Positions 128-15,733 of a stretch of DNA of 20,640 nucleotides are shown here, piece after piece. A program made the translations under genes and the position numbers. Below the pieces are notes generated by a model. The model had not been told where the DNA came from and ran no database searches. It was given only the letters and a program-made list of their open reading frames with translations. Origin of the DNA: Oligoflexia bacterium (GTDB lineage: Bacteria > Bdellovibrionota > UBA1018); the NCBI GenBank assembly GCA_043732485.1, contig JAYTHP010000003.1:1-20640 (forward strand), given 5' to 3'. The first letter of the stretch is position 1. Each line of letters opens with the position of its first letter.

Positions 128-2773
128 ATGACCTTTAGCACACCCCCCCAACCTACTGCTGCCGCCGCCTCCTCCCACCCGAACAGCACCGCAGGCCTTG
201 AGCGACTCCACGGGGTGGTCGAGCGCGTCACCTTCCATAGTGAGGAAAGCGGCTGGTCCGTGCTCAAGGTCACACCTTTTGGTCAAGCGACCCAAAAAAT
301 GACCACCGTGGTGATCCATCAAGTGAAAATCTTTGCTGGCGCGACGATGGAGTTTTGGGGCAGCTGGAGCCGCCACCCCAAGTACGGCGAACAGTTCAAA
401 GCCGTACGCGCCTCTGAGACCAAACCCTCATCGGCCGCAGCCCTGGAGAAATACCTCGGCTCTGGCTTGATCAAAGGGGTGGGACCTGCCACGGCCAAGC
501 GGATCGTCGATCACTTTGGCAAACAAACGCTTGAGGTCTTTGAAAGTCAGATCACCGATCTGCTGCTAGTTCCAGGCATTACCACCAAGAAACTCAAACA
601 AATTCAGGAATCTTGGGAAAAACACCGTGCGATTCGCGACGTGATGATTTTTTTACAAAACTTTGGCATCTCCTCGCTCTTTGCGACTAAAATTTATAAA
701 ACCTACGGTGACCAAGCAATTGCCACGGTTACCAGCAATCCCTATCGTTTAGCGCAAGATATTTACGGCATTGGATTTTTCTCTGCCGATAAAATTGCGC
801 TTGCCATGGGTTTTGAGCGGGCGGGGATGGCCCGGATCGAAGCGGGTATCAAGCACGCTTTAGCAGCCAGTCGCGACCAGGGGCACTGTTTTCTAGAAGA
901 CACCCAGATCACTGCAAACACCCGAGAGCTGCTGCAAGAAGACTTGAAACTAGAGCAGATCCAAAACCTCCTGCAGGTGCTGCTGCAAAGCGATCAGATC
1001 AAAGCCCGTACGCTCCTTCGTGAGGGGGTCAAGCACCACTGCTACTACTCGAAGAAACTGTATTTTGATGAAATCAGCGCAGCCAACAGTATTTTGCAAG
1101 CCTTAAGCCAGCCTGTCGTCTCCCATCCAGCGCAGCTGGAAAGCTGGATGGCGCAGTATTGCCAGCAAAACACCTTGCAACTCAGCGACGAGCAGCGGCT
1201 CGCGATCTTAGGCATTGCCGGACAATCCTTCTCCGTGCTCACCGGTGGTCCAGGGTGCGGTAAAACCACCTGTACTCGGGTACTTGTTGCCATGCTGCAA
1301 GCGATGAACAAGCAGGTGTTGCTGACCGCACCCACGGGTCGCGCGGCGCAACGGATGTCCGAAGTGATCGGCGCTGAAGCCAAAACCATTCATCGCTTGC
1401 TGGAATGGGCCCCGGAGCTGAACAACTTTAGACGCAACGAGCAAGAACCCCTAAGAACTGATTTTTTGATCTGTGATGAGACCTCCATGCTGGACATCAG
1501 CCTCGCTGCAAGCCTGCTCAAAGCCGTGCCTGCCGGAGCCCAAGTGCTGCTGATTGGCGATCCAGATCAATTACCAGCCGTGGGGGCAGGCGAGGTCTTG
1601 CGCGACTTACTGAAAAGTGCGCAAGTGCCACGCTTCCGCCTGACCCAGATCTTTCGACAGGCGAGCAGCTCCTCGATTATCCGATTTGCCCACGCCATTA
1701 ACTCCGGTCAGGTGCCCGCCATTCTCTCCCCACTCGCACAACCGCAAGCATTCGCCCATGGGCACGACTGCCTGTTTGTCGACGCCGATGAGGCTACACG
1801 AGAACAGGTGCAATTCCTCACGCGCGCCCGCCTTGCCATCGAGCAAACCTTAAAAACGCCGACTGGCCCTTTCGTACAACTCGGCAAGCAGTGGCAGGGG
1901 AGACTAGAGAAAACCGCAAATGGCATTGAAATCAACCCCTTAGATCCAGACCCCCTACTTGCGACCGCTCGAGAGTCAGGCCCCAGGCCAAGTGCCGCCT
2001 CTCCCACGATGACAAGTCTTCCCCCTTCCGGAGTTTTGCGTATTCCTGAAAAATTCCGGCACGTCAACTTCAATGACCTAAGTCAGGCTGCCTCGCTGAC
2101 GGAGGAACTCATGACCGTGCTTAAATCAGTCCACCCCTGGTCCACTCTCAATTACGGCTATACCGCAGTCGAGACGGTGATGCGACTCTACACCAAAACG
2201 TTGCCCGAGTGGCTTGGAGAGGCCCACCCTGAGATTCAAGTTCTCACCCCGCAAATCCGGGGAACGCTGGGCACTGCCCACCTCAACGAGGCGCTGCAGC
2301 GCATCAAAAATCCTCCTGCGCCAAGCAAACGCCAAGTAGAAATCGGCGGCAAATTAATGCGGGTCGGTGACCGGGTCATTCAGACCCGCAACAACTATGA
2401 GCTGGGGGTGTTCAACGGCGACATTGGCCATATCACCGATCTCGATCCCACGGAGCTCAGCTGCACCGTCACGATGACAGGTGGCGGTGAGCGGCAAGTG
2501 AGTTACGGAAAAGAGGACTTAAGTGATCTCGCTTTGGCCTACGCCATTACCGTGCATAAATCCCAAGGTAGCGAATTTCAAGCCGTGATCCTGCCCGTCA
2601 TGAGCCAGCACTTTAATATGCTTTTTCGTAATCTCATCTACACCGGTCTGACGCGCGCCAGAAAACTTGCAGTCTTTGTCGGCAGCCGCAAGGCCTTTGC
2701 TATGGCCATCCATCAAACCAATCAAACGCCTCGGCAAACTGCGCTCGTTGAGCTACTGGAGTTGCCTGATTGA
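128..2773 (+). CDS. recD2: RecD2-like ATP-dependent SF1B DNA helicase (about 881 aa)
   Basis: N-terminal 'GVVERVTFHSEESGWSVLKV...HPKYGEQF', HhH-like 'YLGSGLIKGVGPATAKRIV', 'NPYRLAQDIYGIGFFSADKIA', Walker A 'TGGPGCGKTT', 'APTGRAA', 'DETSMLD', 'GDPDQLP', 'YAITVHKSQGSEF', 'LIYTGLTRARK'. The start is uncertain: GTG 89 or in-frame ATG 128. Confidence 0.95.
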   Translation: MTFSTPPQPTAAAASSHPNSTAGLERLHGVVERVTFHSEESGWSVLKVTPFGQATQKMTTVVIHQVKIFAGATMEFWGSWSRHPKYGEQFKAVRASETKPSSAAALEKYLGSGLIKGVGPATAKRIVDHFGKQTLEVFESQITDLLLVPGITTKKLKQIQESWEKHRAIRDVMIFLQNFGISSLFATKIYKTYGDQAIATVTSNPYRLAQDIYGIGFFSADKIALAMGFERAGMARIEAGIKHALAASRDQGHCFLEDTQITANTRELLQEDLKLEQIQNLLQVLLQSDQIKARTLLREGVKHHCYYSKKLYFDEISAANSILQALSQPVVSHPAQLESWMAQYCQQNTLQLSDEQRLAILGIAGQSFSVLTGGPGCGKTTCTRVLVAMLQAMNKQVLLTAPTGRAAQRMSEVIGAEAKTIHRLLEWAPELNNFRRNEQEPLRTDFLICDETSMLDISLAASLLKAVPAGAQVLLIGDPDQLPAVGAGEVLRDLLKSAQVPRFRLTQIFRQASSSSIIRFAHAINSGQVPAILSPLAQPQAFAHGHDCLFVDADEATREQVQFLTRARLAIEQTLKTPTGPFVQLGKQWQGRLEKTANGIEINPLDPDPLLATARESGPRPSAASPTMTSLPPSGVLRIPEKFRHVNFNDLSQAASLTEELMTVLKSVHPWSTLNYGYTAVETVMRLYTKTLPEWLGEAHPEIQVLTPQIRGTLGTAHLNEALQRIKNPPAPSKRQVEIGGKLMRVGDRVIQTRNNYELGVFNGDIGHITDLDPTELSCTVTMTGGGERQVSYGKEDLSDLALAYAITVHKSQGSEFQAVILPVMSQHFNMLFRNLIYTGLTRARKLAVFVGSRKAFAMAIHQTNQTPRQTALVELLELPD

Positions 2774-2885
2774 AAAGACACTTAAAATGCTGCTGAGCTT
2801 TGGCTTAAAGCCGCGGCTGAGGACTGCGCTTACGGCTGGCACTTGGGAAAGCGGATCTCAAAACAAGTGTGAGGATCCTAGCTTA

Positions 2886-3789
2886 GACACCGTTTCGCAA
2901 ACCTCTAAATAGAATAAATTAGGTAATTCATGTATGTCTTTCAGACATCAAAGAAGAAAGGCGCATATAATTCCCTCGACTTGCACTCTATCAGAAAAAG
3001 ACTGGAAACTGATCCAAAAAATTTTGCCTCCTGAAATTGAAACAGGCAAGGGCACGGAAGGGGGGTGACTCCACGCAGACCTTCGAAAAATTTTTTGTGG
3101 ATTGCTGTTTTGGATTCGATCAGGATGCCCATGAGATCTGGTTCCAAGGTATTTTGGCAGCCGCACCAGTCTTGGTAAATATCTAAAAAAGTGGGTAAGC
3201 GCCGGTTTTTTTGATCAACTCATGGAAGAGGCACCGCAATTGTACGATGAGACACTCGGCATAGATTGGTCTTTCCAATCGATCGATGGGTCCCTAAATC
3301 AGGCTCCCGGATGTTCTAAAAATACTGGAAAGAACCCAATAGATCGGGTCCGACCCGGAATCAAGCATATAATCTTAACTGACAAAAATGGGATACCCAT
3401 TGCGGTTAAGATCATTCCAGCAAACGAGTCCGATATGCACCAGATTGAAGAAACCCTCGAAAGTATTGGACTACCCAGGCCTAAACCAAAAGAAGTTGAG
3501 CAGCACCTCTGCGCAGACAAGGGCTTCGACTCAGCTGCCAACCGGCAGCTAGTAGAAGAGTGGGGCTACACTTCTCATATTATTAAGCGCGGGGCTCAAG
3601 TTAAACCCATTCGACGCTATAATGCCAAGCGGTGGGTTGTTGAACGTACCCATTCATGACTCAATCAATATCGCGGGATTCGAACGCTACGGATTCACCG
3701 CCCCGAAGTCTATCGGGCAATGACATTTTTAGCCTGCGCTTGCGTCATTTTAGCTAAACTATGATATTCGGGGTTTGCGAAACGAGCTC
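2886..3789 (+). mobile_element. Degenerate IS5-family insertion sequence (IS427/IS1031-like), 904 bp
   Basis: Terminal inverted repeats GACACCGTTTCGCAAACC (2886-2903) and GGTTTGCGAAACGAGCTC (3772-3789) match at 15/18. TA flanks both sides (2884-2885, 3790-3791). The element encloses a transposase pseudogene. Confidence 0.88.
2934..3764 (+). pseudogene. IS5-family DDE transposase pseudogene with three in-frame TGA stops
   Basis: Single frame: MSFRH...LSEKDWKLIQKILPP...GG*LHADLRKIFCGLLFWIRSGCP*DLVPRYFG...SIDGS...KHIILTDKNGIP...ADKGFD...KRWVVERTHS*LNQYR...FLACACVILAKL*. Internal TGA at 3066, 3132 and 3657. The ORF-track entry 3222..3659 is the middle fragment. Confidence 0.9.
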
Positions 3790-4179
3790 TAAAGCTTGAA
3801 GAGCTTACCCGGTTTAGCCGCATCATAGCAGAAAAACCTGAGCAGAGAAGGCGGCTGGTCAGGTCCTCCAACGGTGCCCAACTACCCCCAGTAACTCTGA
3901 GAAATGATCTCACTGAATCAACGCCTCATCAACGTTTCAACGCACGGAGAACTTTACCCTTCGGCTTAGGATGTGATCCGCCTTGTGTCTCGCCAACCTT
4001 AAAAGCAAAAATTTAATTTGCCAATCTTTCTGGGAATGTGCTAACTCTCTTTGCCACCAGCAGGCAATCAGTTTCCACCAGAGAAAGAAATGCCCTATCT
4101 CTCAAGAGGAAATCGGCTCGACAGAGCAGGTCTCAAATTATCCGCTCTGAGGCTCTGAGCAGTTTTTTAGGAGTATAAA

Positions 4180-5001
4180 ATGAAGTCCCATCAATTTTCA
4201 CCTCAACGAGGCGTAGTCCCTTTTGTGATTTTACTTCCCATCTTACTCACTATCGCACTGCAGTCCACCCTGGAAGCTCACGCGCTCACTCCCGAAAAAG
4301 ACACGGGCAACCTCGGAGAAATTAGACAATCGATTTTGAACGTCACTCAGTTTCAAGAGATCTATGGTCAGGGATGGATTTTAATGGCAGGCCAGAACGC
4401 GCAAGACAGCGATCTCTTTCGCGAAAAACTCTGGAACGAGTCAAATATCCCTGATGCACGAGGCGTTTTTTTAAGGTCAAGCAATGAGGGTCGCCCAACA
4501 ACTGAGGGATGTTCCGAGGGTAATTTAGGGATCGGCAGTTATCGAGCCGATCAATTTGGTAGCTATAATCACCCAGGAACTTCCCACGCGGGAAACGCCA
4601 AATTTTACCGCACCGTTGACTCCCACAATAAGCCCCACGAAGACCGTGAGCGCAACCCTTACGAATCACGAGACAATCACCAGACGGGGTGGGATAATTC
4701 GACCCGAAGTTTCTATATTGACCGCAACGACAGCGCCTGGACTAATGCCAATCACACTCATGACCTGGCAATCGAAAAATCGGGCGGCACCGAAACCCAA
4801 CCAAGAAACATCACGGTCAATACCTTCATCAAAGTCAACCGGACGCCAGAGAGCCAACAAACAGACCATATTCTCAGCTCTTTAACGAACCTCCCTGGGC
4901 AAATTGCAAAAAATGAAGCCTTGCATCAAACCCTTCAGGCTCTCATTCAGATTGAAGTTTTCAGAGCACTAGCGGCGTTCCAAGCTCCAGCGCAACCGTA
5001 A
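4180..5001 (+). CDS. Exported protein with a phage tail-collar / tail-fibre-tip-like domain
   Basis: SD AGGAG upstream. Signal peptide MKSHQ...VILLPILLTIALQSTLEAHA. Collar-like motifs 'LGEIR...GWILMAGQ...LF...NIPDARGVFLR', 'GSYRADQFGSYNH', 'NHTHDL', 'GGTETQPRNITVNTFIKV'. About 50 extra C-terminal residues look helical. Confidence 0.75.
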   Translation: MKSHQFSPQRGVVPFVILLPILLTIALQSTLEAHALTPEKDTGNLGEIRQSILNVTQFQEIYGQGWILMAGQNAQDSDLFREKLWNESNIPDARGVFLRSSNEGRPTTEGCSEGNLGIGSYRADQFGSYNHPGTSHAGNAKFYRTVDSHNKPHEDRERNPYESRDNHQTGWDNSTRSFYIDRNDSAWTNANHTHDLAIEKSGGTETQPRNITVNTFIKVNRTPESQQTDHILSSLTNLPGQIAKNEALHQTLQALIQIEVFRALAAFQAPAQP

Positions 5002-5071
5002 ACGGCGTTTTTTTTAGAGTGGTGAGTGGTGAGTTGATTGACAGATCATTTTTTGGCAAGGAGTGGAAGCA

Positions 5072-6394
5072 ATGAAATCTATCGGGTCAAAACTTATAGG
5101 TTCATTTTTGCTAACCAGCACTTCGAAAAAAGTAATTTGTCTCACTCTCCTGCTGGGCATGGTTATTTTTTTTGGCTGCTATGACAGCTCTGCCGCTTCT
5201 CTTGTCGATTGTAAGGAAGTTCTTCCCGAAAGTTTACCCAATTTTCCGGTAGAAAACGAGCCCAGCGCGTATCGCTCCAAAGTGACCACCTACCCCGTCG
5301 TGTCTGAGCTTAATTGTCAGAAAACCCCTGACGGCAACCTGAGTTCGTGTCTGTATCCGACTATTGAGTTAAAAAACGAGTGGGGGACTTTTCCTGCTGT
5401 ACCGTTTGAAACAGTTGTCAAAGTCAAAGTCTCTCGCGCCTGCAGACTGAGCCAGCCCTTCTCCACTCTGCAAATCAGGCTCGGCAAACCCTTCGCAGCC
5501 TCCCCTGCGGACGACTCTGCAGCAGCACGTTACAATAACTCAGATTTCTTAGGTTTTCAGGATCTCAACATCGACCACAATCGAAAAATCACCTTAACTC
5601 AGACGAATCACGCCCCTTTGGGCAGCTTAAAAATTTCACCTCTGGCGCCCAAGATCTTCTTAGACTCCCTCTTTCCAAGGGGTTGTGAAATTTTCCTTAC
5701 CCTCGAGATGAATCGCATCGCTTTGAGGACTCAACAGGAAGCACGCCAGCATCTCACCCAACTCAGCACACAAGCCCAGCTGATGGCTGCGACCCTAAAA
5801 GGATTGCAAGCGCTGCCGCAAGAAATGCCTAGCCTGGCTCAAAATCTTCTTGCGCTGTTTCAGCGCAATCAAGAAAACCTCAGCAACTTCCAATTGAAGT
5901 GGGAACCTCTGAGAAAACTACTTCCCGAGCTCAATCGGCAACTTGAACACGAGAAGGAGAACATTTTCAGTTTGCGCGAACTGACGCTAGTAATCAATAC
6001 CTTTACCGATTTTCTAGACGGGATTTTAGGCCTCAAAGACGTCAGTACCGGAGCAGATCTCGAGGACAGCATTAAAAAACTGATGCCCGGGACACCTAAC
6101 CCCCTCCAGCGCTTCGTCGACCTACTTGACAAGGAATACCTAACTCAGCTGGAAAAAAGGGTGCAAGAAGCGCAACACCAGGTTAGGGTTGCGCAACAGG
6201 CACTGGACTCGAACTTTTCTGATAAGCAGGTGGTTTCGCGCCTCCTAGAAGAGCTCAGGGATCAGCTCATTCTACAGATCTCCGGTCCGCACGGGATGAT
6301 AGACCAATTTGTCCATGGTCTTTATCAAAATGGAAAAAAAAGACACGCTAACCTGGTGGGAGCAACCATCATCGGAGTGCAAAATCATGCTTGA
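5072..6394 (+). CDS. Exported (possibly lipoprotein) hypothetical protein: Cys-containing N-terminal domain plus long coiled coil (about 440 aa)
   Basis: SD AAGGAG at 5058-5063 favours ATG 5072 over GTG 5063. Hydrophobic segment 'KKVICLTLLLGMVIFFGC' has an imperfect lipobox. The C-terminal half is Q/L/E-rich and amphipathic. Confidence 0.8.
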   Translation: MKSIGSKLIGSFLLTSTSKKVICLTLLLGMVIFFGCYDSSAASLVDCKEVLPESLPNFPVENEPSAYRSKVTTYPVVSELNCQKTPDGNLSSCLYPTIELKNEWGTFPAVPFETVVKVKVSRACRLSQPFSTLQIRLGKPFAASPADDSAAARYNNSDFLGFQDLNIDHNRKITLTQTNHAPLGSLKISPLAPKIFLDSLFPRGCEIFLTLEMNRIALRTQQEARQHLTQLSTQAQLMAATLKGLQALPQEMPSLAQNLLALFQRNQENLSNFQLKWEPLRKLLPELNRQLEHEKENIFSLRELTLVINTFTDFLDGILGLKDVSTGADLEDSIKKLMPGTPNPLQRFVDLLDKEYLTQLEKRVQEAQHQVRVAQQALDSNFSDKQVVSRLLEELRDQLILQISGPHGMIDQFVHGLYQNGKKRHANLVGATIIGVQNHA

Positions 6395-7769
6395 AGGCCT
6401 CAAAAATAGACAAAAATGGGTTGGATTCTCAGTCAAGGCAAGTCTCCTTTGGCTCGTAGGGATATTTTTTTGTGCAACTGAATTGCAAGCTTTGACCTAT
6501 CAACAATACCTGAACGAAAGGGATAATTGGAAGACTTTAGCTCAGAATAACAAGTCCTCAAAAGAACTTGCACTCAAACGCGCGAGGCAGAGCGTCGATC
6601 AGAAAAAAGCTCATCGCGACCAGCTTATCGAAGTTAAGAAAGCTCTCCTGACACTCGGGCACAGTCGACTGACCGACTCCCAGCACGCCAAGATGGAGGG
6701 GTTAAACGATGAAATCAAAAACATCAAGGAGAGCAACTTTCAGGGCAGCACAATCAATCTCAAATACACCAAAAACCAACAGTCTTATGTAAAAGACTAT
6801 ACTAGTCTCCTTGACCATTTCCAACACTATCACGGCTCGGAAACAACCGAGAAGAAGAAGCTGCAAGATGAGGTAACCCTATCCTTGGGGGCAAAAAACA
6901 CTAGCGACCTCGCCCTTGCACAAGCTCGACTGATCGGGCTCCGCAAAGAGGAAAGCGCCGATCAAACCCTACTTGAAGCACAGGCAGGAATTCTTGTAGC
7001 AAAAATGAAAAACACTTTTACTGAGTACGAAGAGCAACTCACACCTTGGCAAACGTTTCTCACGCATTATCAAATATCAAAAATTGATCCCCCAGCGGCC
7101 TATCTGACTCAGCTCCAGCATATCCAAAATTATGCCCACCAAAGGGGGGAATATTTTGCGCACACCGTGGCAACTCAGCTCCCCAAAATTGAGAAGCAAT
7201 TGAATGACTGCCTTCACACAGCTATCAACACGGATCAGCAATCCGGGGAGAAAAAGCGCCTCGATACCGCCCTGTCCGTTGGGTTTCTTGATACAATCGG
7301 GGCACTGCTCAAAGAGGAAATGCAAATCAGGAAGGATCCGGAAAATCAATCCGCTTTTGGCTGCGGAAACAAATTAAAGCCCACTTATGACTTTTTTCAG
7401 AGAGTGCTAGTTTATCAAGAGCAATGCCAGGACGTGAGGGCCCTGAAGCAGGCAGGATCGCCCTACGCTTTGGGATGCCTTTTATTTAAACCGGTCCTGC
7501 AAGGCGCCAAGGGGTTCTTCAAATCAGGGGCTTGGGGCAATATTGGATTCACACTCATTCCCGCCGAGTTTTGCGGACCCAAAGCACTTTCTCCCCTCGG
7601 GCAGAGAATCAACGCCATCAAACAGCTGCGCGTCAAAGAAAATGACATGCCCAACGCAATTTTGCTGGAAGCCATTCAACTTCATGATGAGTTGCTCACT
7701 CAGTGGGCAACTCTTGCTGCGGCTCCCCCGATCAGCCCCGACGTTGCCCCAACCGGGGAGGGGCAATAG
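6387..7769 (+). CDS. Exported hypothetical coiled-coil protein with a Cys-containing C-terminal domain (about 460 aa)
   Basis: ATG 6387 follows GGAG and overlaps the upstream stop by 8 nt (ATGCTTGA). This start gives the signal peptide MLEGLKNRQKWVGFSVKASLLWLVGIFFCATELQA. The body is K/Q/E/L-rich, with five Cys in the last third. Confidence 0.8.
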   Translation: MLEGLKNRQKWVGFSVKASLLWLVGIFFCATELQALTYQQYLNERDNWKTLAQNNKSSKELALKRARQSVDQKKAHRDQLIEVKKALLTLGHSRLTDSQHAKMEGLNDEIKNIKESNFQGSTINLKYTKNQQSYVKDYTSLLDHFQHYHGSETTEKKKLQDEVTLSLGAKNTSDLALAQARLIGLRKEESADQTLLEAQAGILVAKMKNTFTEYEEQLTPWQTFLTHYQISKIDPPAAYLTQLQHIQNYAHQRGEYFAHTVATQLPKIEKQLNDCLHTAINTDQQSGEKKRLDTALSVGFLDTIGALLKEEMQIRKDPENQSAFGCGNKLKPTYDFFQRVLVYQEQCQDVRALKQAGSPYALGCLLFKPVLQGAKGFFKSGAWGNIGFTLIPAEFCGPKALSPLGQRINAIKQLRVKENDMPNAILLEAIQLHDELLTQWATLAAAPPISPDVAPTGEGQ

Positions 7770-7771
7770 AA

Positions 7772-10120
7772 ATGATACGCCAGCGATCGCCGTTAGGAAG
7801 CCGTTTACGTTTGCTCTACGCCGTAGCTGGGATATTGCTTGTCGGGGTTAACCCGAGCGCTGAGGGCAGTCCGTGTCCAGGAAAATCTTGCTTTGAATTG
7901 CAGGCAGATGGAAACAAAACCAAATCAGGATCTTGGAGAAATCAGTCAGCGGGGGATATTAGGACCTACTACAAGAATCTCAAACATCCAGAATATTATC
8001 TCCTGGTCAACAGTCAAAAAGTTCAGCTCGAGGGTTACGAATTTGAGCAACCCGTTTGGACGTTGCTAGCTTTTCCAGCAATGAACTTATTTGATGAAGG
8101 ATCGAATTCAATTGCCATTCACTTTGTGGGTGAAAACTTAATTGGCCTCTTGTTGACTTTAAAATACTGGAATGCACAGGGTGGATCACCCCTGCCTATT
8201 TGTTCCGCCCGATTGAACCATGACACGGTGAACACGGTTAACTGCCAGGTAACGATCTCTTTAAAGCAGCTCGATCCAAGCATTGCAGCCCGCATTGAGG
8301 ACCTAAAGCGGGAGATTGCAGAATATAAGGTCCAAGCAAACGACCGTAGTAACCCTGAAGAACAGGCAGCCCACGCACTGGAGAAGGAATTCGAACAGGA
8401 GTGTGCAGAGATCCAACTCAAACTAGACCTTTTGAATCAGGAATTACAAAAAATCAATTTTGACGACTTTGATTCTATGACCTCCGAGCAAATGGCGAAC
8501 CTGTTTGCGGCAGATCAAAACCTAGCTGAGCTTTATCAGCAACTCAACCATGCCGTTGTACAGACGAGGGAGCGCTTGCAGTCGGCTGTGCAATCGAATC
8601 AGCAGGAGGTGACCCAGCGCGGGGATGAGATTAAAGCAAGTTTCGGGAATTTAGAGATCCCAGCCTCCTCTTTTACTTTTGCAGGGGAGGTAGAGCCGCT
8701 TTTTACTGCAGGCGATCCAGGGAATGTGACCAACGCTAGCGACGGGCTCTCTGCTGCTTCTGCTGCGACGACGACTCTAGATTACTTTGACAATGAAACT
8801 GAGCACACCGTTCAGCGACTCGATGCTGCTTTAAAAGAGGGAGAGCGGGGTCGGTTTTTGACGATTTTTTCCCATTGGAAACTCTTGCAGGATCTCACGC
8901 TTCAGAATTTAGAAAAAAGCCGGGTGAGTGGAGCATCCCTGGCGCGCATCAAAAAAGCACAAAAAAGAGTGATCGAGCATGTAGATAGCCTGGTGGATAC
9001 TTACGGCTTCTTTCGCGCAGTGAAGATGGGAGAGCAAACCAAGCGCATCGCCGGCCAAAAGCTTAAGTCTTGGAACGAACGACTCAGTCGGGAGCTTCTC
9101 GAGGAACTGAACGGCTGGCAGGATCAGCTCTCGCCCGCACAAGAAAAAATTGTGCAGGCCATTGACAGCCTGGGTCCCTTGCTCTCAAAAATGCAAGAAC
9201 CCAACTTTCTCAGCCCTGAGGAGGGAAAAACCCTTCCCCAGCAAGCAGCCAAGGAGCTGAGCCAAGATATCCTCAAGCACGGAGTGGAATCGCTCATTCA
9301 GGCCGCCCATGAGGCAACCGAACCAGCGGCGCCCCAGACTCCGGCTGAGCCCCCGGTTGACGCTGAGATTGCTAACAACAGCACCGATACTGCTGAAGCC
9401 AGCACACAAAGCAGCGACTACACCAGCCCCTTCGGAGAGCTGCTCGCACAGGTTCAATCAGCGGTGCACACCGCTCAAGTCTTGGCGGATCTTGCCCTAG
9501 GTATCTTGCCTTTCACCGCTGGGGCTAAGGATCTGTACCAAGCCTACACGGGCGTCAATCCGATCACAGGCGAAGCCCTGAGCTTTAACGAGCGCTTGTT
9601 TTCCACGGTGACCGGAATCCTCCCCTTAGAAGCCGGAGGATTAGCAAAGATCCTATGCAAAGGACCGCTCAAGATCCTCGAGAAATTTGGCAAGGCGGAC
9701 AAGCAAGCTTCGGCCGTAGGGCAGAGCTATCGCACTGAGGAGATCGTTCAGGGGGTTGAGAAGTTTGCTGATTCTGCGGTGGGTGCAGCTAAAAATCAAG
9801 CAGCATTTGCGAGATATGTTAGAGACTTAAGGGAAGCAATGCAGCGTCCTCATGTCCAAGACCCCCATTTAGCGGACATGATGAGACAGCAATATCGACC
9901 CGGTGCAGTCATTGGAAGTTGTAGCACGGCCGCAGCTATAAGGTACGAGAGAAAGACAGGTGAACTTCTAGGCGGACGAAGTCACATTCAAAAAGGTGAG
10001 AATGATGCAGTTTTCTTAAGACACTGGATACAACAAAAACCGACTGCGACTCCAGGGGATAGAGCTGCTGCCGAAAATGTATTAAAAGACCTCCAAGATG
10101 CCCTTCAAGGACCAGCATGA
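7772..10120 (+). CDS. Polymorphic toxin: signal peptide, N-terminal domain, coiled coil, pre-toxin TG motif, C-terminal putative tRNase-type domain (about 782 aa)
   Basis: ATG 7772 lies 2 nt after the upstream stop, with GGAGGGG upstream. Signal peptide MIRQRSPLGSRLRLLYAVAGILLVGVNPSAEG. PT-TG-like 'DLALGILPFTAGAKDLYQAYTGVNPITGEALSFNER' at about 9488-9600. C-terminus 'YRPGAVIGSCSTAAAIRYERKTGELLGGRSHIQKG...PGDRAAAENVLKDLQDAL'. An overlapping small gene follows. Confidence 0.85.
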   Translation: MIRQRSPLGSRLRLLYAVAGILLVGVNPSAEGSPCPGKSCFELQADGNKTKSGSWRNQSAGDIRTYYKNLKHPEYYLLVNSQKVQLEGYEFEQPVWTLLAFPAMNLFDEGSNSIAIHFVGENLIGLLLTLKYWNAQGGSPLPICSARLNHDTVNTVNCQVTISLKQLDPSIAARIEDLKREIAEYKVQANDRSNPEEQAAHALEKEFEQECAEIQLKLDLLNQELQKINFDDFDSMTSEQMANLFAADQNLAELYQQLNHAVVQTRERLQSAVQSNQQEVTQRGDEIKASFGNLEIPASSFTFAGEVEPLFTAGDPGNVTNASDGLSAASAATTTLDYFDNETEHTVQRLDAALKEGERGRFLTIFSHWKLLQDLTLQNLEKSRVSGASLARIKKAQKRVIEHVDSLVDTYGFFRAVKMGEQTKRIAGQKLKSWNERLSRELLEELNGWQDQLSPAQEKIVQAIDSLGPLLSKMQEPNFLSPEEGKTLPQQAAKELSQDILKHGVESLIQAAHEATEPAAPQTPAEPPVDAEIANNSTDTAEASTQSSDYTSPFGELLAQVQSAVHTAQVLADLALGILPFTAGAKDLYQAYTGVNPITGEALSFNERLFSTVTGILPLEAGGLAKILCKGPLKILEKFGKADKQASAVGQSYRTEEIVQGVEKFADSAVGAAKNQAAFARYVRDLREAMQRPHVQDPHLADMMRQQYRPGAVIGSCSTAAAIRYERKTGELLGGRSHIQKGENDAVFLRHWIQQKPTATPGDRAAAENVLKDLQDALQGPA

Positions 10121-10761
10121 GAGTAGACGTAAATAATTTTATTATTTTTTTACTGGGACTTGATCCTGACTTTGAAAGAGATTGCGAAAGATACCTCAAC
10201 TTTACCGAAGGACAGGAGACAGTTCACGGTATTGCTAGCACATTTTCCGATTTTATTGGAAAGAAACTAAGAGATAATAGATACAGTAAGGCGCAGGCTG
10301 TATTTAACGGAATAGAAACTTTGCTAGCTGAAAGCAAGGGAGACGAAAACATAAAGAATGCCCTCTGTACCTGTTTTTTAGAAAACCTCCTTAATAGATT
10401 TACAGAAGAACCTGCAGTCCTTGATAAATTTATTCCTCTGCTTGGACCTAAAAGTATAAAACACTCTAAGGCATGGGATGAATTTACAGGGGTGCAAACC
10501 CATGGGCTATGGGGAAATGAGCCATTTAAAATAAAAAATCAAGTAAATTTAGGCGACGATGAGGCCCTTAGAATCATCGTTGCCATTCGGCAACAGGACA
10601 ATTCCACTGCGACGGAGGAGGAAGACAGACTAAGAATTCTTCAACAGGCTTTCCCCGGCGTTTTAAATCTAATTTTTTACGATAAAAGAAAGTTGACTCC
10701 TGAACAGGTTTTGGCGGAAGCCAAAAAAATCATTAAAGATAACCATTACCGGGACCGATAG
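10117..10761 (+). CDS. Cognate immunity protein, probably two fused immunity domains
   Basis: ATGA overlap with the toxin stop, no signal peptide, AT-rich (two 60-nt lines counted at 35-38% GC). Domain 1 'IETLL...GDENIKNALCTCFLENL...LLGPKS...AWDEFTG...GLW'. Domain 2 resembles colicin/pyocin DNase immunity proteins ('TEEEDRLRIL...PGVLNLIFY...LTPEQVLAEAK'). Confidence 0.8.
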   Translation: MRVDVNNFIIFLLGLDPDFERDCERYLNFTEGQETVHGIASTFSDFIGKKLRDNRYSKAQAVFNGIETLLAESKGDENIKNALCTCFLENLLNRFTEEPAVLDKFIPLLGPKSIKHSKAWDEFTGVQTHGLWGNEPFKIKNQVNLGDDEALRIIVAIRQQDNSTATEEEDRLRILQQAFPGVLNLIFYDKRKLTPEQVLAEAKKIIKDNHYRDR

Positions 10762-11073
10762 TTCTTCTAACTGCCCTGCGGAACGTGCCAACAAATTTGG
10801 ACACTCAGGCAAAAAGTTTAATGTATTTTAGGGCCTCTGAGGTTTAAGTCATTCTCGGTTTATTTAGTTGCTTGTTATTTTTTTTGTTATCCGTCAAAAA
10901 GATGACAAAAATATCTCACCCCCTTAATCGGCTCTTAAATGCCCTGTATGCTGTTTTTGGTTCTGTCACCACCCACCCCCTGTTTCGCTATCGGAAGCCA
11001 TCCAGAGGGCCTCAGAATTCGCCTGAAGGCCATTTGCAGAGCACTTGTCGATTTTTTACTTTTCTCTTGAGTT

Positions 11074-12217
11074 TTATTTTTTTACAAAAATTGCTCCTTC
11101 GGTTTTTTCATGGGTGTCTTTAGCAAGGTTAGCTATCGCCTGAGTAAGGCCTGGCTTAACTTGCTCGGGCTTGTTAATCCAGACCTCGGTAGGAACTTCT
11201 CTTGGCTTCGGAAACCGCCCGAAGCGCTCTGGATTCCTCTGGTAGGCTTCAGCCAGGGATTTTTTTCTCATCTTGGCAAGCTCCTGGTGTAAGCCATGAT
11301 GAATCTGGGACGGCGTATAGTCAGCCAGGCTGGAGTGCCAGTGCTCGGTATTGTACCAGGTGATTAGCCTATTACAAACTCGGCGCGCGTCTCCCAGACT
11401 CGCGAATCGTTCAGGAAAGTGCGGCGAGTATTTCAAAGTCTTAAACTGGGCCTCGGAGAAGGGGTTGTCATCGCTGACGGAGAGCCGAGAGAAGCTCTTG
11501 TCGATGCTGAGGTCAGAGTAAAGCATGCTGAGCGTCTTGGATTTCGCCGCCGCGCCGCGATCGCTGTGTATCGTGAGCTGTCCTGGGAGAATTTTTTGCT
11601 GCTGGTACGCCGATTCGACTAGCTCCCGCGCGAGCACAGCAGACTCACTGTTTGCAACCATGTAACCAACCACGTATCGACTAAAAATATCAATAATAGC
11701 ATAAAGACAGAAGTAAAACCACTCCTCATGCGTCAGCAGCTTGGTGATGTCCCAACTCCAAACCTGATTCTCCTGCGTGGCCAAGAGCTCTGGCTTCTGG
11801 TAAGACGCCCTGCGCGCGATGTTTCTCCACTCCCTCAGCTCGTCCCGCTCCTCGAGAATTCGGTAGATGGTTCTTACCGAGCAGAGGTAAATCCCGTCGT
11901 CCAGTAACGCCGCGACAATGGCCGCCGGCGACCAGTCAAAAAACCGCGGCGAGTGCAAAATGTCAACCACCTTTTCCCTCTCATCGCTTGTGAGGGCGCG
12001 ATGAGAGGGACCACGCTTCGCCTTAGCTCCTACGGCTTGCGCTTTTGTCGATGCATAGTAGCTCGATCGGCTTACCTCAAGGCTTTCGCACGCCAACTGA
12101 GCCGGAACCCCTTGTGCTGTCAGCGTCTTGACCGCCTCCACAAGCCTAGCCAACGACCCAGGCTCTTTCTCTAGTCCTGCTTGTGTTTGATCTGCAGAAT
12201 TTCTGAAATTTTTTTTT
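11074..12217 (-). CDS. IS3-like transposase OrfB (rve/DDE core), probably expressed as an OrfAB fusion by -1 frameshift
   Basis: 'PELLATQENQVWSWDITKL', 'IDIFSRYVVG', 'HSDRG', 'DDNPFSEAQFKTLKY'. The frame stays open upstream of TTG 12153 back to the A9 run (KNFRNSADQTQAGLEKEPGSL), which is -1 relative to OrfA. Confidence 0.9.
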
Positions 12218-12587
12218 GAACCTCGATGATTTTTTGCGCCTGGCTATACTTCAGCTCTAACGCGCTATACTTTCGCTTGAAGATTCGCAGCTCCTCCTCG
12301 AGCTCACTCTCCTTTGGGCGAGGCCCACGTTGTATCTTGCTGTTTCTTATCAGTTTTCCCTGCTCACGCTCTTTTCTCCAGAGACTCAGGTGGGAGGCGT
12401 AAAGCCCCTCCTTCCGCAGCAACTCTCCTAGCGATCCGTTAGCCTTTTGACAACGGTCCGCCGCGGACAAGATCTCGAGCTTGTAATTAACCGTGAGGTT
12501 TCTCCGCTTCCTCTTGGCTTGACCCGGTATCACCTCCGGATTTGGTACCCTATTAGTCGTGGCTTCATCTTGCTTTATCTCGTCCAT
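12171..12587 (-). CDS. IS3-like transposase OrfA (HTH plus coiled coil)
   Basis: SD GGGGGAG. 'RRNLTVNYKLEILSAADRC...LGELLRKEGLYASHLSLWRK...IIEVQKKISEIL'. A9 slippery run near the 3' end. Confidence 0.9.
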   Translation of the reverse strand: MDEIKQDEATTNRVPNPEVIPGQAKRKRRNLTVNYKLEILSAADRCQKANGSLGELLRKEGLYASHLSLWRKEREQGKLIRNSKIQRGPRPKESELEEELRIFKRKYSALELKYSQAQKIIEVQKKISEILQIKHKQD

Positions 12588-12771
12588 AGGCTCCCCCCTA
12601 GGGATGATTAAAGCTCAAATTTGTCCTTAAAGCTTCATTAAACTTTCGTGCCGAGTGTCCAGTGGGTTATTGGCACACAGGGCTGCTCTGTTTTCCGGTT
12701 GGCAACCACCGACAAACAAGTCGTCCCGTGTCCCACCCCCCCCCAAAGCGCGCAAGTCTTGAGCTTCTCTT

Positions 12772-12800
12772 TTGACCGGCCAAATGGCCTATGCTAGCCT
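12772..12800 (+). promoter_or_regulatory. Putative sigma70 promoter of ampG
   Basis: TTGACC (12772-12777), a 17-bp spacer ending in TGC (extended -10), then TAGCCT (12795-12800). Confidence 0.55.
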
Positions 12801-12806
12801 GATAAG

Positions 12807-14069
12807 GTGATGACATCCTTCTGGGGGAATCTTTTTAACCGTAAAATGCTGATCGTGCTAGGCCTGGGCTTTTCTTCCGGAATCCCCATTTCCTTAGCGG
12901 GCGGGACGCTGCAGGCCTGGATGGCTAGCCTGAAGGTCGATCTCTCACTGATTGGCGCTTTTTCGCTCGTGGGGTTGCCCTATACCCTTAAGGTTCTTTG
13001 GGCGCCCCTGATGGATCGCTATCTGCCGCCGTTTTGGGCCAGGCGCAGAGGCTGGATGGTGAGCAGCCAGGTGGCGCTCATTTTTTGCTTGCTGGGCATG
13101 TCTTTTGCCGATCCCTTGCAATCGCCAGCCAATTTGGCGCTGCTTGCAGTGCTGGTAGCTTTTTTCAGCGCCAGTCAAGACATCGTGGTAGACGCCTACC
13201 GGGCGGAACTGCTGGAAAAAAAGGAGTTTGGCGTGGGAGCTGCCACCGCAAACTTAGGCTATCGGCTTGCCATGATCTTCTCCGGTGCCTTTGCGCTGAT
13301 TCTCTCTGATCACCTCGCGTGGCCGACGGTTTACCGCATCATGGCGCTCACCATGGGGATTGGGGTGTTGACCACTTTTTTTGCCCCCAAGGAGAATCCG
13401 CGCGCAAACGCGACTCGCCCGCACTCGCTGCAAGAAGCGGTGGTTGATCCTTTTTTGGACTTTTTTCACAAGAAAAAAGTGGCCTCCTTGATTGCTTTTA
13501 TCCTGCTTTATAAGCTTGACGTGGTGGTGGCGGTGGCCTTGATGACCCCTTTTATGATGGAGTTAGGGTTTACCCGCACCGATATTGGTGCCATCACCAA
13601 GGGCTTTGGTATTCTGGCGACACTCATAGGCACCTTTGTGGGCGGGCTGGCTTTAACGCGCATCCCGATGAAGCGAGCCTTAGGGATTTTTGGAGTGTTT
13701 CAAGGCGTCTCAGGCATTTGCTTTTATCTGCTTGCCAAATTAGGTCTCAACTACCCGATGATGATCGTGACGATTGCCGCCGAAAACTTCTTTAGCGGCA
13801 TGGGCAATGCCGCCTATGGTGCTTTTTTGATGACCCTGTGCAATCCCAAGTTCACGGCAACCCAGTTTGCGCTCCTTACCAGCCTGATGGCGCTCACCCG
13901 CACCCTGGCAGGAGCCCCGACCGGCTGGCTGGCCCAGACGGTCGGCTGGGAAACGTATTTTCTCATCTCCATTGCTTTGATGATCCCAGGCCTCGTCCTC
14001 CTCAGACACTTTGATGCTTGGATGAGCCCGCGATCTTCCGACCTGAGCCTCAGCGGTCGTTTGACATGA
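12807..14069 (+). CDS. ampG: AmpG-family muropeptide MFS permease
   Basis: 'LGFSSGIP', 'LPYTLKVLWAPLMDRY', 'RRRGWM', 'FFSASQDIVVDAYRAE', 'GYRLAM', 'FTATQFALLTSL'. Multiple TM segments. Start is GTG 12807 or ATG 12810. Confidence 0.95.
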   Translation: MMTSFWGNLFNRKMLIVLGLGFSSGIPISLAGGTLQAWMASLKVDLSLIGAFSLVGLPYTLKVLWAPLMDRYLPPFWARRRGWMVSSQVALIFCLLGMSFADPLQSPANLALLAVLVAFFSASQDIVVDAYRAELLEKKEFGVGAATANLGYRLAMIFSGAFALILSDHLAWPTVYRIMALTMGIGVLTTFFAPKENPRANATRPHSLQEAVVDPFLDFFHKKKVASLIAFILLYKLDVVVAVALMTPFMMELGFTRTDIGAITKGFGILATLIGTFVGGLALTRIPMKRALGIFGVFQGVSGICFYLLAKLGLNYPMMIVTIAAENFFSGMGNAAYGAFLMTLCNPKFTATQFALLTSLMALTRTLAGAPTGWLAQTVGWETYFLISIALMIPGLVLLRHFDAWMSPRSSDLSLSGRLT

Positions 14070-15025
14070 GCCGTGCCATGAGCAGTTCCCCCAGTAATTC
14101 TATGATGCTCCTCCCCCCCGGTTGGTATGCTTTTGCCTCGCCTGAAGAACTTTCCCGCAACAAACCCAATGCCTTGCGCAGATTTGGCCTCGCTTGGGTC
14201 GTTTGGCGCTCGTCGACAGGTACCTGGGTGGCACAAAGCGATCGCTGTCCCCATCGCGGCGCAAAGCTCAGTCAGGGGGTGATCAAGCACAATACCTTGC
14301 AATGTCCGTTTCATGGGTTTTGCTTTCAACCCTCAGGCGCATGTGCTTGGGTGCCGGAGCTGCAAAAAGAGGCTCCACTGCTGCAACTTGCCACCCAAGT
14401 TTTGCGCGAGGAGTTTGATTTTCTCTGGATCAACTGGGGAAATACCCCGGAGCGCGCTCTGCCCTGGTTTCGTGAGCTTGAAAACGCTGGATTTTCTTAT
14501 AGCCAGATTTGCCAACGCTGGAGCAAGCATTTTTCGCGCTGCGTTGAAAACCAGCTCGATTACGCGCATCTTCCCTTTGTCCACGCCACGACCATTGGGC
14601 GGGGCTTTGACGTTCACCGCAAGGTGCACTGGCAACTCAACGAAAAAGCGCTCACCGTGTCCCTGGGAGATTCTACTAGTCAGTTTCAATACCGCTTCCC
14701 GAATGTTTGGAAGCTAGTGATTAGCCCGAAAATGGCCCAAACTTTGATGTTTGTTCCCGTCGATCACCAAGAAACCTGGATTTATAGCCGCGCCTACCAA
14801 CGCTTTACCTCAGTGCCTCTCCTCAAGCAGCTCATCGCCTGGATTGCAGCACACATCGCAAACCCCTTCATCTTAGCGCAAGATCACCAGGTGGTGATGG
14901 GCCAGCAGCCGGAAGAAAGCCTCCAAGCCGCCGCTAATGATCATTTATTCCCCAGCGACCAGGCCATACTGGCTTTTCGAGCCTGGTTAAAAACCGCCCA
15001 GCCCACCCCAGCCAAACCCTCTTAA
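14066..15025 (+). CDS. Rieske non-heme iron oxygenase alpha subunit (VanA/PaO-like), substrate unknown
   Basis: Rieske ligands 'DRCPHRGAKLS...LQCPFHG', mononuclear iron motif 'ENQLDYAHLPFVH', C-terminal 'AQDHQVV'. ATG 14066 overlaps the ampG TGA (ATGA). Confidence 0.9.
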   Translation: MSRAMSSSPSNSMMLLPPGWYAFASPEELSRNKPNALRRFGLAWVVWRSSTGTWVAQSDRCPHRGAKLSQGVIKHNTLQCPFHGFCFQPSGACAWVPELQKEAPLLQLATQVLREEFDFLWINWGNTPERALPWFRELENAGFSYSQICQRWSKHFSRCVENQLDYAHLPFVHATTIGRGFDVHRKVHWQLNEKALTVSLGDSTSQFQYRFPNVWKLVISPKMAQTLMFVPVDHQETWIYSRAYQRFTSVPLLKQLIAWIAAHIANPFILAQDHQVVMGQQPEESLQAAANDHLFPSDQAILAFRAWLKTAQPTPAKPS

Positions 15026-15088
15026 GCTCAAACACCCCTTTGCAGGGAAAACGAACTGCGAGAGTGTGTCTCCCCTCAAGCCCCGCGC

Positions 15089-15499
15089 CTATTTTTTTTT
15101 GCTAGGCTCAGGCTTTTCAGGGCGCGGCGCCTGATGTTTTTTGAGATCCTCAAGCGGAATGATCTCAAGCGCCTTAGCGTGGGTCGCCTCCAAGACCACC
15201 GGAGGGGCCACCTGATGGATGAGAGCCTCTTTCCAGCGCAAAGCACATAAACACCAACGATCTCCAGGCGTTAACCCCGGAAAGCGCAGGTGAGGCCGCG
15301 GCGTGATCAGGTCATTGCCTTGCGTGCGCGAAAACTCCAGAAATTCTTGTGTCACCACCGCACAAACGACATGCAAGCCATGGTCATCCTCGCCCGTGGC
15401 ACAAAACCCGTCGCGGTAAAACCCGCATTGCGGATTTACCCCGCAGACCTCAAGCTTTTCTTGTAAAACATTCAAGGACGGATGCTTTGGGATGGTCAT
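15089..15499 (-). CDS. DUF2237 family protein
   Basis: 'NVL..KLEVC...GFYRDGFCATGEDDHGLHVVCAVVTQEFLEFS...GNDLITPRP...FPGLTPGDRWCLCALRWKEA...APPVVLEATH'. SD AGGAG precedes ATG 15499. An alternative in-frame ATG lies at 15619. Confidence 0.9.
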   Translation of the reverse strand: MTIPKHPSLNVLQEKLEVCGVNPQCGFYRDGFCATGEDDHGLHVVCAVVTQEFLEFSRTQGNDLITPRPHLRFPGLTPGDRWCLCALRWKEALIHQVAPPVVLEATHAKALEIIPLEDLKKHQAPRPEKPEPSKKK

Positions 15500-15675
15500 G
15501 GCTACTCCTGGGCTGTTTCCTGGCTGTTCTCCGAGACCTGCGCCCGCGCCGACTCCCTCTTCCGGCAAGACGATGATGAGCGCGCCTACCAGGAGGAGCG
15601 CTAAGTTGCGGTAGGTCATGAACAAGTCATTTCCGGACGTCTCCTCGTTAGATGCATGCGTTGCATGCACCATCA

Positions 15676-15733
15676 AATTCCTCCCGTCTCTTGCAAGACG
15701 GGGCGACAGGGAGGCAATTTTTTCTTTTCTTTT
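15676..15733 (+). other. GC-rich hairpin followed by a T-rich tract in the divergent DUF2237/photolyase intergenic region
   Basis: CCTCCC (15680-85) pairs with GGGAGG (15709-14). An alternative stem is CCCGTCT (15683-89) with AGACGGG (15696-702). T-rich run at 15718-15733. Confidence 0.4.

Follow-up and report, generated by a model that had tools for sequence, protein, structure and literature searches.

Gene 1 is the open reading frame (ORF) at positions 4180–5001 on the forward strand of contig JAYTHP010000003.1 (assembly GCA_043732485.1), which comes from an Oligoflexia bacterium of the phylum Bdellovibrionota; the 20,640-nucleotide stretch of this contig that was analysed is referred to as the window. 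The gene encodes a collar/tip protein of the kind found in phage tail fibres, and it opens a five-gene, putative toxin–immunity cassette. The link between a tip gene and toxin genes is not confined to the window, and recurs across three unrelated designs of toxin carrier. The parts of gene 1 are as follows.

4169..4173, + strand: Shine–Dalgarno-like AGGAG, 6 bases 5′ of the gene 1 ATG, read from the sequence
4180..5001, + strand: gene 1 (protein P0001), collar/tip protein predicted to be exported; ATG start, 273 amino acids
4180..4284, + strand: predicted Sec signal peptide, amino acids 1–35, ending A-H-A, based on hydrophobicity and the family alignment
4285..4476, + strand: collar part, amino acids 36–99 (PEKDTGNLGEIR ... 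GWILMAGQ ... IPDARGVFLR)
4477..4572, + strand: proximal tip, amino acids 100–131, ending Y129-N-H131 (HxH in the family)
4573..4779, + strand: variable tip module (the 'insert'), amino acids 132–200, with the motifs GNAKFYRTV, NHQTGW and NHTH
4780..4839, + strand: closing strands, amino acids 201–220 (SGGTETQPRNITVNTFIKVN)
4840..4998, + strand: C-terminal helical tail, amino acids 221–273, consisting of a helix, the conserved Pro239 and a second helix

Gene 1 and its kinship with phage fibre tips

The original prediction had described collar-like motifs behind an AHA-type leader, and every motif named there was found in the translation of gene 1: G65-W-I-L-M-A-G-Q72, P91-D-A-R-G-V-F-L-R99, S128-Y-N-H131, H191-T-H193, E205-T-Q-P-R-N...F216-I-K218 and, in the leader, A33-H-A35. 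Residues 9–31 are the sole hydrophobic stretch of the protein, closing in A-H-A and containing one basic residue, R10. We aligned the gene 1 protein with 22 full-length homologues (E up to 6e-20), and these 23 sequences are referred to as the family. In this alignment, conservation starts abruptly past the A-x-A site with the block PEKDTGNLGEIRQSIL, as cleavage at this site would give, and a Sec signal peptide is therefore predicted. The gene 1 product is thus predicted to be exported with cleavage after A35, and the collar motifs start approximately 10 residues past this site. At the other end of the chain, the proposal that about 50 helical residues lie beyond the usual end of such proteins was borne out: 53 residues follow K218, the structure model described below places helices there, and the hydrophobic positions of the tail (221–273) are spaced by three or four residues, with Pro239 conserved in every one of the 17 rows not gapped at this position.

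In PHROGs, the gene 1 protein matched families of tail proteins and tail collar fibres (1.6e-12, 4.1e-8, 1.6e-7, down to 3e-5), with those named 'tail collar fiber protein' ranging from 4.1e-8 to 4.7e-6. The match of the single gene 1 sequence to the short tail fibre protein gp12 of phage T4 was weak (E 0.08); the 23-member family profile matched gp12 in the structures 1ocy (1.1e-5), 1pdi (5.5e-5) and 5iv5 (2.9e-4), as well as another short tail fibre (9.7e-4). The profile alignments reach the extreme C-terminus of gp12, where the family sequence ETRPR..VNTFIKV is paired with ETRPWNISLNYIIKV, and the closing strands of gene 1 align with the C-terminal end of gp12, at residues up to 526–527. 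A further connection was given by the collected protein P0160, which carries the Pfam Collar domain (152–217) and a weak S_tail_recep_bd match: in hhalign, the family matched P0160 at 99.1% (E 8e-19), with residues 63–218 of P0001 against 165–333 of P0160, so that the gene 1 collar from residue 63 onward lies on the Pfam Collar stretch. Pfam Collar was matched by only 2 of 25 sampled relatives. Every named match in BFVD (best E 9.2e-4) was to a tail collar or tail fibre protein, and the relatives on viral contigs were all distant, with identities of 32% or less where the match takes in both collar and tip. A search of the whole library gave 1209 relatives at E<=1e-3 and just 12 at E<=1e-30, indicating that the close family is small. 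Pfam detected no phage structural domain in the 14 large ORFs of the window, a 20.6-kb contig; with the PHROGs, family profile and hhalign matches, this upholds the earlier description of a collar/tip module outside any prophage. The resemblance goes beyond what chance would give and shows gene 1 to be a phage-fibre collar/tip module homologous to the gp12-type tips.

The family alignment revealed a sharp division of conservation along the chain. The frequency of the top residue was 0.68 in the collar (36–99) and 0.78 in the closing strands (201–222), compared with 0.24 in the tip segment (132–200), so that the hypervariability proposed for the insert was found among the homologues. The length of this segment varies from 34 to 69 amino acids, gene 1 having the longest. 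By BLASTP among 164 other collected proteins, the collar was detected in 162, the C-terminal tail in 13 and the tip module in five, and three of the five carriers of the 69-residue module differ in architecture from gene 1. As judged by eye, P0160 and P0082 have N-terminal extensions and stop at the closing strand, whereas the coiled coil of P0032 is N-terminal. The tripeptide HTH (191–193) is part of a tip subtype recognizable by GNAKFYRTV, NHQTGW and WSNxNHTH and common to P0002, P0003, P0007, P0160, P0082 and P0032. Since this subtype recurs in other collar proteins, the insert is a swapped module rather than a unique insertion, and the tip is a module exchanged between collar proteins in the mosaic manner usual for receptor-binding proteins. 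The HxH of the family, present in 21 of the 23 members, aligns with the sequence 'YHKH' of gp12. It is the SYNH of gene 1 that aligns there, so that SYNH is a degenerate copy of the canonical HxH site and HTH 191–193 is something else. The segment between SYNH and HTH, originally proposed as the specificity tip, is thus indeed the variable part of the family, but it is an exchanged module, and its HTH is not the counterpart of the gp12 HxH. Two other collected proteins carry related tips in different settings: P0066 (775 amino acids) combines a collar/tip-like N-terminus (3–154) with an animal haem peroxidase domain (1.6e-39), and in P0098 the second domain of Mtd is joined to a collar-like tip.

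A monomer model of the gene 1 protein was made with AlphaFold2 (AF2) from the 23 sequences, with a mean predicted local distance difference test score (pLDDT) of 70. The collar (amino acids 41–90; pLDDT 88–95) and the two C-terminal helices (226–244 and 246–268; pLDDT 84–93) were modelled well. In a Foldseek search of the Protein Data Bank (PDB), gp12 came first (5iv5_AI, E 7.6e-4) with a modest template modelling (TM) score of 0.23. With VIA, residues 41–221 of the model were superimposed on gp12 337–527 at Z 5.8, with a root-mean-square deviation of 2.1 Å over 56–68 residues, followed by the gp37 tip (Z 5.2) and a cyanophage fibre (Z 4.5).

The putative toxin cassette and related loci

Behind gene 1, four further genes of the cassette follow on the same strand.

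5072..6394, + strand: gene 2, orphan of 440 amino acids with a signal-like N-terminus, a Cys-bearing beta domain (approximately amino acids 70–216) and long helices
6387..7769, + strand: gene 3, orphan of 460 amino acids with a helical N-terminal half and a Cys-bearing C-terminal domain, read from the sequence
7772..10120, + strand: gene 4, predicted polymorphic toxin of 782 amino acids from ATG 7772 (805 amino acids from GTG 7703)
9482..9685, + strand: PT-TG pre-toxin domain of gene 4 (4.9e-11, 42.9 bits against a cut-off of 23.5)
~9788..10117, + strand: variable C-terminal module of gene 4, approximately 110–120 amino acids
10117..10761, + strand: gene 5, DUF7674 protein of 214 amino acids (DUF7674, 1.4e-14)

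The start of gene 3 was taken, by inference, as the ATG overlapping the end of gene 2, and the start of gene 5 overlaps the stop of gene 4. The products of genes 1–4 have one N-terminal hydrophobic segment each, and that of gene 5 has none. Genes 2 and 3 matched no family in Pfam (E<=10), NCBIfam or PADLOC and gave no usable match in the ESM Atlas. A search of a large protein collection with gene 2, as a single sequence and as a four-row alignment, returned only gene 2 itself and its homologue in locus L003. The AF2 model of gene 2, from which its helices are taken, was poor (pLDDT 54), and VIA matched only a hairpin (219–298) to generic helical proteins (Z <=7.7).

Behind the pre-toxin domain, gene 4 carries a C-terminal module unlike that of its homologue in locus L025, which is the pattern by which a polymorphic toxin is recognized. 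Because the PT-TG domain, a replaceable C-terminal module and a small following gene together form the layout of such systems, genes 4 and 5 likely encode a polymorphic toxin and its immunity protein, toxicity and immunity being what we infer from this layout. The C-terminal module matched no Pfam or NCBIfam family, its best sequence match in the PDB (E 0.22) was not meaningful, and it showed no similarity to the end of the carrier in locus L048. No paper on DUF7674 was found in a literature search that reached few subscription journals, a scope that applies to all our literature searches. A second, C-terminal part is present in the DUF7674 proteins of gene 5 (10117–10761) and of its L048 homologue (9791–10450), and in the latter it weakly matched immunity proteins of the colicin/pyocin kind (E 0.006), under the cut-off.

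To place the cassette in context, 20 loci, namely, the window and 19 others from genomes and metagenomes of Bdellovibrionota, were compared; these are not independent, since genome G311 gives four, G087 two and G320 two. Homologues of the tip protein (E<=1e-10) were found in 18 of 401 sampled genomes of the phylum and in 9 of 57 other genomes of the window's own family (f1), some of which have two to four copies. A toxin carrier follows the tip gene immediately and on the same strand in 15 of the 20 loci, and the gap from the tip gene to the next gene, as determined for 13 loci, ranges from −4 to 111 bases. By the genes that follow, the loci fall into the following types.

Type A (five loci: window, L025, L004, L003, L002): homologues of genes 2, 3 and 4 after the tip gene
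Type B (eight loci: L048, L049, L052, L051, L053, L006, L029, L057): a giant carrier of approximately 1900 residues, sometimes split
Type C (two loci: L056, L058): more distant tip proteins and a carrier of 837–1211 residues
No recognized carrier (five loci: L005, L055, L059, L028, L030)

Among the type A loci, homologues of gene 2 follow the tip gene in L025, L004, L003 and L002 (genome G305). The order of the cassette in L025 is the same as in the window; its toxin matches gene 4 over residues 189–695 only (8.5e-56) and ends in Ntox10 (3.2e-7), with a gene of 130 codons next. Haemagglutinin repeats were detected in two of the type B giants, together with a weak PT-VENN match; the L049 giant ends in Ntox21 (7.6e-27), followed by DUF3885, and the L048 giant is followed by a DUF7674 gene whose product shares 45% identity with that of gene 5. 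In L058, of type C, a protein with SpvB, FG-GAP and RHS domains comes next. Comparison by hhalign of genes 2, 3 and 4, a type B giant and a type C carrier with one another detected no homology (all <1%). When 17 tip proteins were placed on a tree, the type B members formed one clade (support 100/99) and the type C members another (99/99), and those of type A did not form a single clade; the mature N-terminus and the C-terminal tail of the tip proteins likewise vary by carrier type.

The genes upstream of the tip gene differ from locus to locus and are of housekeeping kinds, including major facilitator superfamily (MFS) transporters, glycolysis and MotAB. No phage, two-partner secretion, type I secretion system (T1SS) or type VI secretion system (T6SS) gene was detected beside the tip gene among 19 flanking proteins of eight loci (Pfam, E<=0.001). 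No two-partner secretion domain was detected at E<=0.01 in the carriers of L006, L029, L048, L049 and L052, the loci in hand that were scanned, and no T6SS or type VII secretion system (T7SS) gene was among the neighbours scanned.

Several loci showed individual departures. The type A cassette of L003 is expanded (11768–15705), with two adjacent genes (916 and 396 amino acids) sharing a near-identical C-terminal half like that of gene 3 (E 1e-145), and three more ORFs precede the gene-4-like protein. In L055 (3867–5429; G127:C49:288041-288277), the ORF after the tip gene leaves the contig and contains a second collar-like stretch, which matches family positions 20–99 at E 1.1e-26; the N-terminal part of the ORF resembles RCC1 repeats by eye. 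The tip gene of L029 (4232–4870) is split into two ORFs (73 and 128 amino acids) before the type B carrier, possibly by a frameshift or a sequencing error. In L056, the tip-like gene is not the first gene: a 1526-amino-acid protein with RCC1, cadherin and Big_9 repeats (316–4896) lies directly upstream and overlaps it by 4 bases.

Role of the tip protein and comparison with known systems

Variability within the family is highest in the tip, and the tip module of gene 1 recurs in different architectures, which suggests evolution like that of receptor-binding proteins. The gp12 protein is trimeric, the histidines of its HxH hold a metal ion, and both ends of its chain sit in the collar. We rate at about an even chance the reading in which gene 1 encodes an exported, likely trimeric, gp12-like subunit that binds a cell surface and aims the downstream polymorphic toxin. 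The chain would be exported by Sec and cleaved after A35, and three chains would intertwine by analogy with gp12, placing the variable module at the distal end. The closing strand would return to the collar, as the structural alignment spanning gp12 337–527 suggests. Because both ends of the gp12 chain lie in the collar, the extra C-terminal helices may emerge proximally, in the position of the usual N-terminal shaft, where they could form a short stalk docking on a carrier (in the window, the product of gene 2, 3 or 4). The tip module would then bind a glycan or protein on the surface of the target cell, bringing the C-terminal module of the toxin there, and gene 5 would protect the producer cell.

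A more general proposal is offered tentatively, and we think it rather unlikely: a receptor-binding tip of phage origin, encoded by its own gene, exported by Sec and bearing its stalk at the C-terminal end instead, would serve Bdellovibrionota as the interchangeable aiming device for fibre-like polymorphic toxin weapons that form a new class. Such a device would plug onto at least three unrelated chassis, namely, the three-protein set, the 1900-residue filament and the RHS/SpvB-associated set, and swaps of the distal module would determine which prey or competitor is hit.

Several results weigh against the aiming reading, beginning with the assignment of the fold. The gene 1 protein matched no Pfam family even at E<=10, including Collar (PF07484, gathering score 24 bits) and S_tail_recep_bd, the gp12-type head model being PF14928. 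The profile comparison with Collar and the fibre tips, foreseen as a check in the original prediction, was therefore positive for gp12 and for P0160, and PF07484 itself was silent; it was also silent across the whole genome (2.58 Mb, 89% complete), and searches of NCBIfam and PADLOC with the tip protein yielded no more than a few weak matches far under the cut-off. The structural scores are modest (Z 5.8, TM 0.23), so that the case for homology leans mainly on the profile comparisons. The tip was poorly modelled by AF2 (residues 100–210, pLDDT 44–68), as would be expected if it folds solely as an intertwined trimer. With Y129-N-H131 at the HxH position, gene 1 lacks the first histidine, and its metal site may therefore differ. 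Other results concern the link to the toxin. Five of the 20 loci have no recognized toxin carrier behind the tip gene. No docking element is detectable across the unrelated carriers, which is hard to reconcile with a single conserved mode of docking, and the clustering of the tip proteins by carrier type may merely reflect common descent. Gene 5 is linked to the toxin by position only, and its L048 homologue trails a carrier with an unrelated C-terminus. Finally, no outer-membrane export route is encoded near the cassette in the window or among the scanned neighbours.

This last observation bears on the strongest of the alternatives, in which the trimeric tip binds the outer membrane of the producer itself, for example, its lipopolysaccharide (LPS), and holds the carrier there for contact-dependent use. 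We regard it as improbable, with perhaps a fifth of our confidence. It draws equally on the genomic context that favours the aiming reading; gp12 binds LPS; and some anchor would be needed, since no dedicated gene for surface anchoring or outer-membrane transport lies in or beside the cassette. A variable, mosaic tip fits changing targets better than the surface of the producer, an argument that is blurred by the four tip copies in genome G311.

A role as helper, in which the tip protein templates the trimerization, folding or outer-membrane passage of the carriers and stays outside the final weapon, appears more doubtful still. The tip gene comes first and its product is predicted to be exported like the carriers, and the fact that the carriers are unrelated makes a generic role conceivable; against this, a hypervariable, swapped distal module is not expected of a helper, and the fold class is that of receptor-binding tips.

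We give slightly less credence again to an independent adhesin or lectin with a role of its own, such as attachment to prey, that is merely co-located with toxin genes on mobile islands. Tip proteins do occur without a recognized toxin neighbour, in the five loci noted above, and, among 165 collected proteins comprising the query, its relatives and two gene 2 proteins, 67 have a signal-like N-terminus before the collar, with the motif unfound in 59, a rough regular-expression count that serves as a hint only. Mere co-location agrees poorly with the 15 of 20 loci in which a carrier immediately follows the tip gene, whichever of the three carrier types is present and in several genera, and with tails of the tip proteins that vary by carrier type. 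A decaying prophage remnant with no present function is very improbable: insertion sequence (IS) remnants lie on both sides of the cassette and the nearest named relatives are phage fibre tips, but the frame of gene 1 is intact with a ribosome-binding site, the 22 full-length homologues share its signal peptide and tail, phage structural genes are absent both from the window and from the scanned neighbours of the tip gene in eight loci, and the relatives on viral contigs are only the distant ones described above.

Compared with T4 gp12 (reference structures 1ocy, 1pdi, 5iv5 and 5lye), the order of elements in the family is the same, namely, the collar motifs, the HxH position, the variable head and the closing ETRP..N..IKV strand. 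Gene 1 differs in that it has no N-terminal shaft, the mature chain starting at the collar behind the signal peptide; in that it continues for 53 helical residues past the end of gp12; in its Y-N-H at the HxH site; and in its location outside a phage. The stand-alone tail collar proteins named in BFVD ('Phage tail collar domain containing protein', 'MdpB microcystin-dependent protein') are likewise short and consist of collar and tip, but a C-terminal tail like that of gene 1 is confined to 13 of the 164 collected proteins, and we know of no toxin link reported for these proteins.

Colicins and the S- and R-type pyocins combine a killing module with an exchangeable receptor-binding module and an immunity gene. 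By a functional comparison drawn from general knowledge, colicin-type bacteriocins differ from the present cassette in that their receptor-binding part lies in the toxin chain, and tailocins in that their fibre sits on a contractile or flexible tail, none of which was found here. Phage receptor-binding proteins have been reused in tailocins, contractile injection systems and Bdellovibrio fibres, and polymorphic toxins carry receptor-binding regions of their own. A free-standing gp12-like tip that travels with unrelated toxin cassettes would be a third arrangement, with targeting and killing on separate, exchangeable proteins. Gene 4 is like other polymorphic toxins in its leader, its PT-TG domain, its replaceable C-terminal module and the small gene behind it, and the type B giants resemble the CdiA-type filamentous carriers in their haemagglutinin repeats and weak PT-VENN match.

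In the survey of polymorphic toxins by Zhang et al. (2012; PMC3482391), 'tail fiber' repeats are listed inside some toxin polypeptides and the word 'collar' does not occur in the accessible part of the text; in the present cassette, by comparison, the fibre-like element is a separate protein encoded upstream and predicted to be exported, and not a repeat within the toxin. The part of a 2026 survey of PT-TG (PMC13483458) that was available contains no mention of Bdellovibrio, collar or tail fibres. The MAT fibres of Bdellovibrio bacteriovorus come from the same phylum and, as described in the available part of PMC10769870, have a signal peptide and phage-fibre-like, trimeric, mosaic tips displayed to other bacteria, features that gene 1 would share. 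By the same description, MAT proteins are long fibres, with constructs to residues 922–1151, an approximately 130-amino-acid conserved N-terminal domain after the signal peptide and a variable C-terminal tip, and the word 'toxin' occurs 0 times in that part. Gene 1 is set apart from these by that description, having 273 amino acids, its collar directly behind the signal peptide and its extra element at the C-terminus. An assignment of gene 1 as a MAT fibre was accordingly set aside, given its length and the absence of the N-terminal anchoring layout described there.

No paper pairing 'tail collar' with 'polymorphic toxin' was found, and among the papers naming PF07484 none was on toxins, as judged by title and abstract. 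The pairing of a fibre-tip protein predicted to be exported with a toxin cassette was thus not found in the papers searched. Should the aiming reading hold, it would open a way to study how bacteria of a predatory phylum select the cells that they poison, and would provide a small modular binding scaffold together with the orphan carrier proteins of genes 2 and 3; if the link is one of co-location only, what is left is a common domain in a new architecture.

Borders of the cassette

The cassette lies between two IS-type elements.

3222..3659, + strand: left border, truncated DDE transposase ORF of an IS remnant (DDE_Tnp_1, 9e-12)
11074..12587, − strand: right border, IS element with an rve integrase ORF (11074–12153; rve 7.8e-16) and a helix-turn-helix (HTH)-like ORF (12171–12587)

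The left IS remnant, at 2941–3780, lies between a RecD2-like helicase gene (end 2773) and the cassette, and consists of a short N-terminal-like frame (approximately 2935–3065) and the truncated DDE ORF, which appear to be broken by frame changes. The G+C content is 0.46–0.49 in the cassette and 0.40 around gene 5, compared with 0.51–0.58 in the flanks. A scan of positions 2700–12800 for promoters and terminators gave 12 against 7.8 +/- 2.7 in shuffled sequences for the former and 13 against 13.3 for the latter, neither being clearly above the shuffles. No RNA data set was listed as containing the cassette.

Among contigs from a public sequencing run that may be the source of the DNA, one piece of 7053 bases corresponds exactly to positions 3755–10807, at a depth of 17.3. 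Both borders of the cassette are multi-copy repeats in these contigs, with a depth of 165–410 at positions 3617–3737, and loose ends of the contigs pile up at 3617–3794 and 10778–11117. The difference between the depth of 165–410 at the border and that of 17.3 inside indicates that the cassette is a unique segment between IS-type repeats, and the joins of the contig to the flanks of the cassette pass through these repeats. The runs of a second study gave short contigs over 3872–10878 at a depth of 2–4.5 with 0–1 differences, apart from a piece at 4065–4274 with eight differences. These pieces are scattered over the cassette; a near-identical cassette therefore exists elsewhere, and the DNA is not an assembly artefact.

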